A stretch of 64,000 nt of DNA from a virus: IMG/VR virus record IMGVR_UViG_3300027763_000039, positions 44,317-108,316 of that record, one strand, 5' to 3'. Positions 18,528 to 34,679 of the stretch are shown piece by piece (the first letter of the stretch is position 1; every line of letters begins with the position of its first letter). The notes under the pieces are model-generated. The model made no database searches, was not told where the DNA came from, and saw nothing but the letters and a program-made list of their open reading frames with translations. Position numbers and translations under genes: made by a program.

Positions 18528-21500
18528 TTATACTTGGAGTACTCCTTCTGTTTTCATTGCTAGTTTGTTCATGGCTCCGTTAACTTGATCTAGGATCATT
18601 CTCTGAATAGGTTCTTGCATATTAGCAAATACTGATGCTCCATTAATAACAACTTCTACTCTGTGTGTACCTTGTAGATTAACTTGTTCTGGTATTTTAA
18701 TCTGTTCAAGTTGACCAATAAATCTATTGAAAGTGCTGGTAAACTGGCTTAATCCGTCTAATTGACCTCTGCTATTATTATTTACACCACCACCGACTGG
18801 AGTTGCCCCCATGCTTTGAATCATGTTTTCTAAAGCCATACCAAATTGGGTTAATACTTGATTACTTCCAGTTAATAAAGTTCCAAATATCGCTAATTGT
18901 TTATCAACATCTCCAGCATGTTGAGGATCAAAAGCTGCTTGAGCAGCCATATTTACTCTTTGGCTCATTTGGGGATTCATCTGTTGATTACCCTGAGTAA
19001 ACATTGCCTGATTTTGTTGTTGGTTCTGTTGGTTTGTCTGATTCCCTTGAGGAGGAGCTTGTTGAATCTGTCTTGGTATTCCTCTATATTTATATTCTTC
19101 AGCTTTATTTATTTGTGCTTCTTTTACTCTCTCGCCCAATGCTTTTCTTTCAGCTTCTATACTATCTCTAGTCTGTTTTCTCTCTGCTTCTATTGCTGCT
19201 AGTCTTAGTTGATCTAATTGTCTTCTTTCATCTCTGTCTTGTGTATATTTTCGTTTTTTAGGAGTTTCTCCACCTGACTCTAAGTATACTACTCCACCAC
19301 TAGAAAATCCTTGGGCTCCACTATTAATACTCTTTAACAGAGGTAGATTTTGCTGAGTGGCCTGACGATTAACAACAAACTCTCCTGGGGTCAACATTGC
19401 TGGTACAGTGTCTGTGCCTCTTGGCTGATAAGGAATCAACATTCCATTATTAGCATAAACCACCCCACCTCTAGCCTTAGCTAATACATCAATATTACTA
19501 GGAGCTAAATTGTCTGAACCAATATATTTAATAGCTGATCCAGGTGGCATAGTTTCAAAAAATCCTTCTCTAAATTTTTGAAGCATCTCTGGATTTCTTT
19601 TTCCTATAAACTTCATAATTTGGGATAGAACTTCACCATCTCTTGTTACTGCATCTGTACTATCATATATTGCTCGTCTGCTTGGTAGTCTAGTCTGCTG
19701 TTGCATTAGCCAACTATCTGCAAGACCTCCCCCTCCACTATTTGGACTAGCAAATGTTTGTGTTTGAATACCTCTTAAGGTTTTACCAGATGGATCTTGT
19801 AATTCTAGTTTCTTTAATAACGGGGAATATTTCATATCAGATAATACTGATTGTACTTGGTCAAAATTATCATGTAACCAACGAGCCACATAAGATTTAT
19901 TTAGCTCATAATCAAGATCAAATCTTGATGGGTCTAATGTTTCATCAAATTTAACAATCATGGGTTTACCACGAGTATCTGCTCCTGTAAGTGTTCCTTG
20001 CATAATAGATCTGGCGTGTTTTTCAGCTGCTTCCCTACTAGTGTAGGTGTACAAGCCTTGACCTTGTCCGTACCCCTTTGCAATACTACTTTTACCACCT
20101 TCTTTTTGAAAACTTTTTAAAATAGAGTCTTCTAAGCCAGTATTACTAGCATGAAAAAGAGGTACAGTTTTAGAAGCTTTGGGCACATCTAATGGCGCAC
20201 TAGATTTAGTAATAGGAGTTTTTGCTCCTCTGATACTTTGTCTTGAACCAGCGTTGGTTGTTGTAGCACCTCCAGCCACAGCTGCTTCAGCAATATCAGT
20301 AAACATATTCCAAGCTGCACCAGCTCTTTCTAAAAAAGAAGCTCCTAATAATCCTGGTCCTGCTGGTGGACCATAAGCACTAATTTCTCCTGTTGGAGTA
20401 TGCCACTGTCTCCCACTATTATCTGTAGTTATTTTTGCTCGTTGTGTTTGTAATTTTGCCTGTTGATTAGCAAAGTCTAATTCTCCTTGGGTTGGAGTCA
20501 TTTCTGGCATATAGTTCTGATTTTGTTGACCTAGTCTTGGATCCATTAATCGTGATCCTGGAACCAACACACCATTTTGAGCATAAACTATGCCACCCTG
20601 AGATTTAAATTGACCAAATGCTTTTGCTTTAGAGGATGGTATTGGTGTGACAGGTGTTGGGCTTACGGGCTTAACTAAATCGCCATAGCCTTGTTGCTCA
20701 ATTTCATATGAGGTTGTTGGTCTTCTAATATAGTCTTCACCAACACCAGACTCAACTCTAGTAGTATCTGTTATAAGACTTGGTTTCTTAGTATAACCAT
20801 TTTCTCCAGCACTAATATCAGGATGTTTTTCTAATTTTTTCCATAATTTTTTAGCATCTGGAGTTTGACTATCGTCAGGTATTACAGAACCACCTATTTT
20901 AGTGATATACTCTATAATAGCATGATATAAACTTTCTCCATATCCTTTTTTGGCTAATGATGTTTCTATTTTAAATGTTTTTTGATTATCTATCGGTTTT
21001 GCAGAAACTCTTCCCCATCCTTGGTTAGCGGATCCAGTTTTTGGATCTTCATAAAAAGCAATTATCTCTCTTGCATCTTCTCCAAATACTTCTGAATTAA
21101 ACTTGTCTGCATTTGTATTATCGTATGGACTTAGAATGCGAATTTTATTACTTGCTGGAGCTCCAGGAACATCTGGAGTTTGTGGTTTATTTTGTTGAGC
21201 AAGGAGAGACTGTTGGAGCTTGATCATAACTTTTTGTTTAGCATCTTCTAATACTCCACGAGCTGTTTCTATTAAGAATCCACCTCTAGATTGTGCTAGT
21301 TTTGGATCAGTATCTGCTTGAGTTAAATTAAAATTAGTATGTCTAGACAAAAATTCAGCAGCAGCAGACTCGCTTTCAGGTTGATAGAAATTACCAGTTC
21401 CTTCGACTTTAGCACCATATGTGCCTCCAACTTTTTGTTCAGCAGTACCAATTAAACCTCTATCTTTGTATCGGGAGGCATTCATTTCATCTACTGGTCC

Positions 21501-34679: not shown

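Follow-up and report, generated by a model that had tools for sequence, protein, structure and literature searches.

How does a phage come to carry a tape measure protein (TMP) of more than five thousand residues, and what does the additional length hold? The question is raised by the stretch analysed here, 64,000 nucleotides of IMG/VR virus record IMGVR_UViG_3300027763_000039 (positions 44,317 to 108,316; hereafter the window), in which the whole tape measure gene occupies positions 18528-34679 of the minus strand as a single uninterrupted open reading frame (ORF) of 5,383 codons plus stop. An earlier note, made from the sequence of the window, described the product as a TP901-type TMP in which helical tape alternates with globular, linker-bounded modules, and proposed that these are enzymes injected into the host. 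The evidence reviewed below points, on a balance only slightly in its favour for the reading as a whole, to a TMP scaffold with exchangeable enzyme modules that are probably delivered as TMP cargo. All features lie on the minus strand and are given by residue of the protein, followed by position in the window.

A TP901-type tape measure protein of 5,383 residues

By its profile matches the ORF is a TP901-type TMP. TIGR01760 matched residues 151-460 (33300-34229) with E 2.9e-22 and 79.2 bits (cut-off 28.8), and PF10145 matched residues 192-384 with E 3.1e-24 and 86.4 bits (cut-off 33.2). Both the core and the 5,383-residue length given in the earlier note were borne out. PF10145 was the sole Pfam family matched when the two halves of the protein and ten separate modules were searched at E<=10. 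The core is distantly related to the TMPs of the SPbeta type. A glycine-rich hydrophobic stretch at residues 1515-1586 (29922-30137), recognized by composition and hydropathy, fits a TMP as well. No tail sheath family was detected in the record itself or in four relatives that are 100% complete by CheckV, which fits a non-contractile tail, and the phage is probably of that kind.

The source record measures 108,316 bp and is 77% complete by CheckV, and complete relatives of the phage have genomes of 150-205 kb. The comparisons described here were made with five full-length orthologues obtained by scanning IMG/VR (5,022, 5,483, 5,679, 3,606 and 5,132 residues, on contigs of 109-205 kb) and with about 17 additional TMPs that are partial; all of these sequences come from uncultured phages. 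Three of the orthologue contigs have direct terminal repeats and four are 100% complete by CheckV. With a further TMP of 6,107 residues from a protein library, the orthologous ORFs span 3,606-6,107 residues. Residues 1-520 are 43-95% identical across the five full-length orthologues. The gene order, from an ORF of about 346 residues through the TMP to ORFs of about 1,442, about 546 and more than 1,300 residues, is the same in the window and in two relatives (L002 and L003). An assembly artefact was considered as the origin of so large an ORF and ruled out, as many independent contigs hold open homologous ORFs of thousands of residues.

Predicted enzyme modules within the protein

Residues 987-1169 (31173-31721), a part of the module called M2, are supported by predicted fold and invariant motifs as a HAD-fold phosphatase-like domain. 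In a model of residues 585-1240, predicted from the alignment of the five orthologous TMPs, model residues ~410-550 reach a confidence (pLDDT) of 60-80 and show a strand-helix pattern. When this model was compared with 48,161 PDB chains by VIA-align, 49 of the 50 top rows belonged to the HAD superfamily (Z 8.8-10.3, 125-167 aligned residues), the matches covering model residues 403-585, that is, protein residues 987-1169; the 3'-phosphatase of T4 Pnkp (5uj0) was matched with Z 9.7. Foldseek returned seven matches at E<=1e-3, all of them AphA (best E 3.5e-4, probability 1.00), and almost all of the remaining rows shown were HAD-fold proteins, including the HAD domain of the Legionella effector Lem4. 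No variation was seen among the five TMPs at D999-F-D1001-R-T1003, S1063, K1106 or D1118-D1120, residues that fall on predicted strands and helices in the order expected for motifs I-IV, with K1106 as the presumed motif III. Sequence profiles of HAD proteins aligned with motif IV alone and weakly (TIGR01509, E 0.13; PDB profile, E 2). A single-family search of the genome with PF13419 (HAD_2) found no match, and a profile of the HAD module found none at E<=0.1 among 5.8 billion proteins of 105-335 residues. The module also occurs in more distant TMPs, at 32-34% identity.

On the N-terminal side of the HAD module, residues 836-986 of M2 (31722-32174) are strongly conserved in five TMPs, LLFGAAGFKG...VKVRITSGVLD being an example, in a part of the model where pLDDT is mostly low. 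At the other end of M2, the roughly 100 residues 1126-1233 (31005-31301) form the most widespread non-core segment, recognizable in distant TMPs that have no HAD module, often just upstream of their ADP-ribosyltransferase (ART) module.

An ART-fold domain with a histidine, aromatic and acidic signature is supported for residues 4838-5068 (19476-20168). A profile search retrieved 13 homologues of approximately this region, mostly free-standing proteins of about 240 residues, and AlphaFold2 modelled the module from the resulting 14-sequence alignment with pLDDT 78.4 and pTM 0.77. In VIA-align the ART superfamily accounted for about 45 of the 50 top rows, among them KptA (Z 7.2), PARP13 and PARP16 (6.5), TreX (PDB 8s2m, 6.1) and PARP10 (6.1), as well as diphtheria toxin, DarT and Arr; it is this derivation of nearly the whole list from one superfamily that carries the weight for the fold. 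The weak Foldseek rows against the PDB were likewise mostly ARTs (cholera and pertussis toxins, KptA/Tpt1, DarT), and a BFVD search, with a best E of 3.8e-4, listed 'large polyvalent protein associated' proteins, a PolyVal ART and DarT. Conservation was followed in 22 sequences: the module of the window, those of 11 further TMPs and 10 free-standing proteins. Invariant in all 22 are H4847, within [LV][YF]H on the first strand, the sequence GYGQGxG followed by an aromatic residue at 4881, D4925-L-D4927-x-E4929, and K-Y. The histidine, aromatic and acidic residues may correspond in position to the catalytic triad of the superfamily (H-Y-E or R-S-E).

At the thresholds used, the module appears to belong to no Pfam ART family. 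PF18760 (ART-PolyVal) did not match the genome at E<=10 and gave a weak match (E 0.06) to one of the 14 members of the ART family; nothing else in Pfam matched the homologues of the ART and GNAT regions. The protein atlas offered ART-PolyVal (PF18760) and Tox-ART-HYD1 (PF15633) as leads only, at 0.82 and 0.79, and sequence and profile searches of the PDB with the module gave no significant match.

Residues 4531-4693 (20601-21089) are probably GNAT-like, the indications being weak and convergent. The core A..G.G..LY...E..T...D....A..W is conserved in six GNAT-like sequences; the sole profile match in the PDB (177,635 sequences) was a weak one (E 0.03), to the N-acetyltransferase 8iym, in an alignment that includes motif A; and the protein atlas linked the module, at 0.88 and with 170 shared features, to a viral cluster with PF00583 in 13% of its members. 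An earlier alignment of the module gave no significant match to the PDB. Two tandem GNAT-like modules were also seen outside any TMP context, in a library protein of 549 residues (P0009).

The other modules to which enzymes had been ascribed gave less. Residues 3583-3833 (23181-23933) contain a single HEMRH at residue 3697, where any HExxH occurs in 1.2% of shuffled sequences, and the module is a possible zincin candidate by that motif. It had no homologue among 1.84 billion representative proteins in an exhaustive search with residues 3576-4775, whose five matches lay elsewhere, and it matched nothing in the PDB or Pfam, including MPTase-PolyVal searched on the genome. Two orthologues have a different module with HELGH between their spacers, and those two modules are homologous to each other. 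A relationship between them and the HExxH module of the window was examined and rejected, as only 24 columns around the motif align. Module M1, residues 596-835 (32175-32894), contains YPVDLI...GEVKF, which resembles PD-(D/E)xK; the PVD...GEVKF motif is conserved in three of five aligned TMPs, absent in two, and lies on a predicted beta-hairpin with pLDDT below 50. The second nuclease-like motif, E...DFPD...DAK in the C-terminal sub-module of M2 (residues 1170-1225, 31005-31172), is invariant in five TMPs, in a region (1150-1225) that is predicted, at low confidence, as helices only.

The motifs of all the enzyme types named in the earlier note are present in the protein, but the types fared differently. 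Its HAD phosphatase and its ART-like domain agree with predicted folds and invariant residues, and its GNAT draws on weak convergent signals. Its HExxH zincin has kept the motif but gained no homologue, and its two PD-(D/E)xK nucleases were not confirmed. In sum, two of the claimed enzyme types are supported by predicted fold, one is supported weakly and three are not supported at all.

Spacer units and the exchange of cassettes

The motif GGxx[YF]A occurs eight times in the TMP, against 0.24 expected from 2,000 shuffles (maximum 3), and the looser GGxx[YF]x 12 times. Windowed self-comparison revealed that most of these GG motifs belong to a unit of about 70 residues, GGxxYA...TDTVPAMLTPGEFVV...GGVVY, besides which there are short GGxxYA joints. 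The consensus of the unit is GGxxYAxxGxLxxYxP(R/K)GTDTVPAMLTPGEFVVNxxATxxxLPLLxxIN...GGVVY. Four good copies of the TDTVPAMLTPGEFVV unit were found, at residues 2355-2425 (spacer L2, 27405-27617), 3270-3339 (L3, 24663-24872), 3513-3582 (L4, 23934-24143) and 5069-5140 (L5, 19260-19475). Two or three degenerate copies lie at residues 521-595 (L0, 32895-33119, detected by self-comparison) and 1226-1330 (L1, 30690-31004, a region of two degenerate units). A leader of about 135 residues, which is itself a diverged version of the unit, occurs twice, at residues 3976-4110 (22350-22754) and 4694-4837 (20169-20600), with 49% identity between the copies, and leader segments also occur in other TMPs. The repetition is visible in the DNA, where there are a 178-nt family of four copies with 61-79% identity and a 44-nt core of five copies, and where the leader repeats are 87% and 76% identical.

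The earlier note had a GG linker bounding every module and took it as the delimiter of the cargo. The enrichment and the repeated unit uphold the first idea in part, but M1 and M2 are flanked by variant joints (GGGKV, GGFIRKFA, GGHVQA) and not by the strict motif. The second was not upheld. The core of the spacer is present as one copy in the TMP of each of 90 GenBank phages (of Mycobacterium, Gordonia, Brevundimonas, Nodularia and others). A cargo-specific invention was accordingly rejected; the core is a common, single-copy element of TMPs, which indicates that a normal TMP element was multiplied here and not that a linker was purpose-built for cargo.

Comparison with the relatives separates what is constant from what varies. 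All or most of the five full-length orthologues share the core, tape segment 1, the spacers and the C-terminus, and M1 plus M2, with the HAD module, is present in four of the five. None of the five contains the region 3583-5068, with the HExxH, M5, M6, GNAT and ART modules, except that one of them has the leader segments.

The nearest relative, L002, gives the clearest view of an exchange. Its DNA is 91% identical to that of the window over residues 1-577, the block ending within spacer L0; 88% over residues 1230-2425, from spacer L1 to the end of L2; 86% over residues 2924-3418; and 87% over residues 5308-5382. Over residues 578-1229 and about 3580-5064 the two are unrelated. From this pattern of identity the pair is read as a recent exchange with breakpoints at the spacers. 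The replacement sequence in L002 holds a Walker A motif, a GxFxPxxxGH motif and a HELGH module of its own, and gave nothing significant in Pfam or in PDB sequence searches; the variable modules of two orthologues matched no Pfam family beyond PF10145. The cassette that stands in place of M1 and M2 (L002:4331-6367, TMP residues 585-1263) was observed to combine a Walker A motif, GVAGSGKST, with GNFGPATAGH, which resembles the (H/T)xGH signature of nucleotidyltransferases, and the pair could represent a kinase plus an adenylyltransferase.

Modules have also changed places. Scanning with the ART alignment found the module in 19 viral contigs and inside a giant ORF in 17 of them. In the 11 giant ORFs that were compared, the N-termini are 56-68% identical to the TMP core of the window where the start is present, and most carry the ART module at residues ~1300-2250 and not near the C-terminus. 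A GNAT-like module adjoins the ART module in three of these contigs (L024 and L028, for example), in the order ART then GNAT, whereas the window has GNAT then ART; adjoining ART and GNAT modules may work together. In another TMP (P0005/L017), the last spacer comes immediately after M6 and GNAT, and the ART module precedes M6. The comparison of orthologues proposed in the earlier note thus showed modules gained, lost, swapped and re-ordered, with the breakpoints falling at spacers. The modular vehicle that it envisaged is matched by a scaffold with exchangeable enzyme modules, but only two of its six enzyme types are supported beyond motifs or weak matches. None of the modules of the window was found in GenBank phage records, where searches with the DNA of the TMP gene and with the ART and M2 proteins gave no match.

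The remaining parts of the protein can be described briefly. All five orthologues align over tape segment 1, residues 1331-2354 (27618-30689). Tape segment 2, residues 2426-3269 (24873-27404), is glycine-rich and then charged and helical in appearance, and only the nearest relative shares it. Residues 3340-3512 (24144-24662) are of low complexity and rich in proline. The small module M5, residues 3834-3975 (22755-23180), lies between GGVVYA and GGIIYA and has no Pfam match, and M6, residues 4111-4530 (21090-22349), has homologues solely in the P0005/L017 TMP, at ~70% identity. In the C-terminus, residues 5141-5383 (18531-19259), the part 5307-5381 is conserved in the orthologues and is 83% identical in amino acids and 87% in nucleotides to that of the nearest relative.

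The TMP gene sits upstream of giant genes with no family match and downstream of fibre-like genes. Four very large ORFs follow it (window 2-18515, minus strand; 1,442, 548, 1,856 and at least 2,303 residues); none has a Pfam match, and the order of the first three is kept in relatives. Among the fibre-like genes, an ORF of 4,021 residues (45397-57462, minus strand) showed no match besides a weak cadherin-like one (E 2.4e-4) and probably encodes a giant fibre or adhesin. A protein of 314 residues (40536-41480, minus strand) has an Mtd_N domain, the N-terminal domain of the major tropism determinant (E 3.7e-11), and near it are a Laminin_G_3 protein (41477-43942) and a collagen-repeat protein (44227-45381).

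Proposed delivery with the tail, its rivals and its known counterparts

A TMP fills the lumen of the tail, leaves it first and forms or lines a channel through the cell envelope (PMC7824862). We infer from its identity as a TMP that the polypeptide is associated with the virion. On the reading favoured here, globular modules would have accumulated on the usual parts of a TMP (the TP901 core, helical tape, glycine-rich membrane segment and C-terminus), and the unit of about 70 residues, single in ordinary TMPs, would have been multiplied into joints at which phages exchange modules, the HAD module being conserved across the clade and the ART module moving between positions and between TMPs. At infection the TMP would leave the tail lumen ahead of the DNA and its hydrophobic segment would insert in the membrane, and the attached enzymes, if the modules belong to the virion copy, would thereby be brought to the cell before the DNA. 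The dependence of ART and GNAT enzymes on NAD+ and acetyl-CoA suggests the cytoplasm as their destination, and host targets would be modified there prior to phage gene expression. The HAD module could act in either compartment, since AphA, its best Foldseek match, is a class B acid phosphatase that we take to be periplasmic.

The length of a tail follows that of its TMP at about 1.5 Å per residue. By this rule 5,383 residues in helical form would correspond to about 800 nm of tail, and the core, tape and C-terminus (about 2,600 residues) to about 400 nm; it is probable that not every module contributes to tail length.

Several observations weigh against this reading. No Pfam or NCBIfam enzyme family scored above threshold anywhere in the TMP, and four of the six enzymes claimed are not established. 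The model of M1 and M2 is poor overall, with a mean pLDDT of 42.6. Every ART match in VIA-align has a Z below 8 (maximum 7.2) and is modest on its own, and Foldseek found none in the PDB at E<=1e-3 for the ART model. The presumed periplasmic location of AphA means that not all modules need reach the cytoplasm. Folded domains of 20-40 kDa have no obvious fit to the lumen of a tail, so that the modules would have to travel unfolded or compactly, or sit elsewhere. The case is built from gene sequences and predicted models.

The same sequence features might instead describe a polyprotein, cut at the spacers late in infection, whether by the HExxH module or by a protease of phage or host origin, with the freed enzymes acting uninjected in the producing cell, for example by modifying parts of the virion, DNA or host metabolism. 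The high conservation of spacer units, which flank every module, would suit such a process, as would the recurrence of an HExxH module in three of six TMPs and the existence of the ART elsewhere as a free-standing protein, and TMPs such as lambda gpH are known to be processed. However, the spacer core is single in many ordinary TMPs without cargo and is therefore not primarily a cleavage signal between enzymes; the HExxH module is no more than a candidate protease; and the fusion of late enzymes to a structural protein with few copies per virion would bring no clear benefit. A polyprotein is accordingly considered unlikely.

Much the same small probability is given to the modules serving as tools at or in the cell envelope during penetration, with the HAD module, for example, acting on periplasmic or surface phosphorylated substrates. 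The AphA matches of this conserved, apparently ancestral cargo would agree with that role, and the known enzyme domains of TMPs act on the wall, SPbeta YomI being annotated as a transglycosylase; but the ART and GNAT folds use cytoplasmic metabolites, NAD+ and acetyl-CoA, and in Pfam searches no peptidoglycan hydrolase family matched anywhere in the protein. Least probable of the three rivals is that the modules are inert passengers, decayed or structural domains that merely add bulk or length without catalysis. Sequences too divergent for any Pfam enzyme family, the near-orphan status of M6 and the HExxH module, and the low confidence of much of the M1/M2 model are in keeping with decay, but residues of catalytic type are invariant in five HAD and 22 ART sequences whose overall identity is 25-70%, and the conservation of M2 equals or exceeds that of the TMP core.

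Delivery of exchangeable enzymes as TMP cargo, the reading preferred here, has partial counterparts in several known systems. Polyvalent proteins (Iyer et al. 2017, PMC5512222), known from phages and conjugative elements, are likewise single, very large, virion-associated polypeptides with unrelated enzyme domains, ART, GNAT and zincin among those listed, and with a predicted role at or just after entry. Several unrelated enzyme domains in one polypeptide are found here as the HAD and ART folds and the probable GNAT, and the BFVD matches of the ART model include proteins of the polyvalent group. Those proteins occur in MuF, portal, virion RNA polymerase and relaxase contexts, in contrast to the TP901-type TMP with spacers described here; the term tape measure has no occurrence in that text (PMC5512222), and the polyvalent Pfam families tested (ART-PolyVal and MPTase-PolyVal) did not match the genome. 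T4 Alt, an ART that is packaged in the virion and injected (PMC7824862, PMC5512222), shares the feature that a ready-made ART would come with the infecting particle. Alt, however, is of the R-S-E type and resides in the head as a protein of its own, whereas the ART of the window is part of a tail TMP and has histidine, aromatic and aspartate/glutamate invariants.

A precedent within tape measures is offered by TMPs with wall hydrolases such as SPbeta YomI, in which a catalytic domain is taken to the cell as the TMP leaves the tail; T5 Pb2 and the TMP of mycobacteriophage TM4 also have embedded cell-wall hydrolase domains. Those proteins have one or two domains acting on peptidoglycan, whereas here there are many modules, exchanged between phages and including HAD, ART and probable GNAT. 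The TMP-related effectors of contractile injection systems (Sle1 type; PMC13277306, PMC11126660), compared by description, are also carriers packaged in a tube and ejected with exchangeable domains, but they belong to genome-free actinobacterial particles and have a single C-terminal functional domain. Polymorphic toxins (ARTs of Rhs and type VI secretion systems, TreX), whose fold match is TreX at Z 6.1, similarly combine a conserved delivery scaffold with swappable enzymatic tips; theirs is a single C-terminal tip used in interbacterial killing, in contrast to the multiple internal modules of a phage infection, and no immunity gene was noticed here, though no search was aimed at one. The literature search found no description of HAD, ART or GNAT cargo, enzymes of cytoplasmic type, on a phage TMP.

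A systematic study of phage protein mosaicism found a sequence-level signal for TMPs in which a recent case could not be confirmed (PMC10684548). The window and L002, with 91% DNA identity up to the breakpoint, provide a clear and recent case of TMP mosaicism. A broader proposal, held with somewhat less than even confidence, is that throughout a large uncultured clade with complete genomes of 150-205 kb the TMP serves as a recombination-ready, polymorphic effector platform, in which HAD, ART, GNAT-like, HExxH, P-loop and other cassettes are swapped, injected ahead of the DNA and act before phage expression. If this is true, it would be a protein-injection route for cytoplasm-type enzymes that was not found described in the literature searched, and it would explain the TMPs of at least 5,000 residues in some uncultured phages. 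It would also provide a natural modular carrier for studying the passage of folded domains through a tail. Phage proteins that enter cells ready-made include T4 Alt, the N4 RNA polymerase, the P1 Dar proteins and polyvalent head proteins; to these the tail lumen would be added as a route for early host-modifying or anti-defence enzymes.

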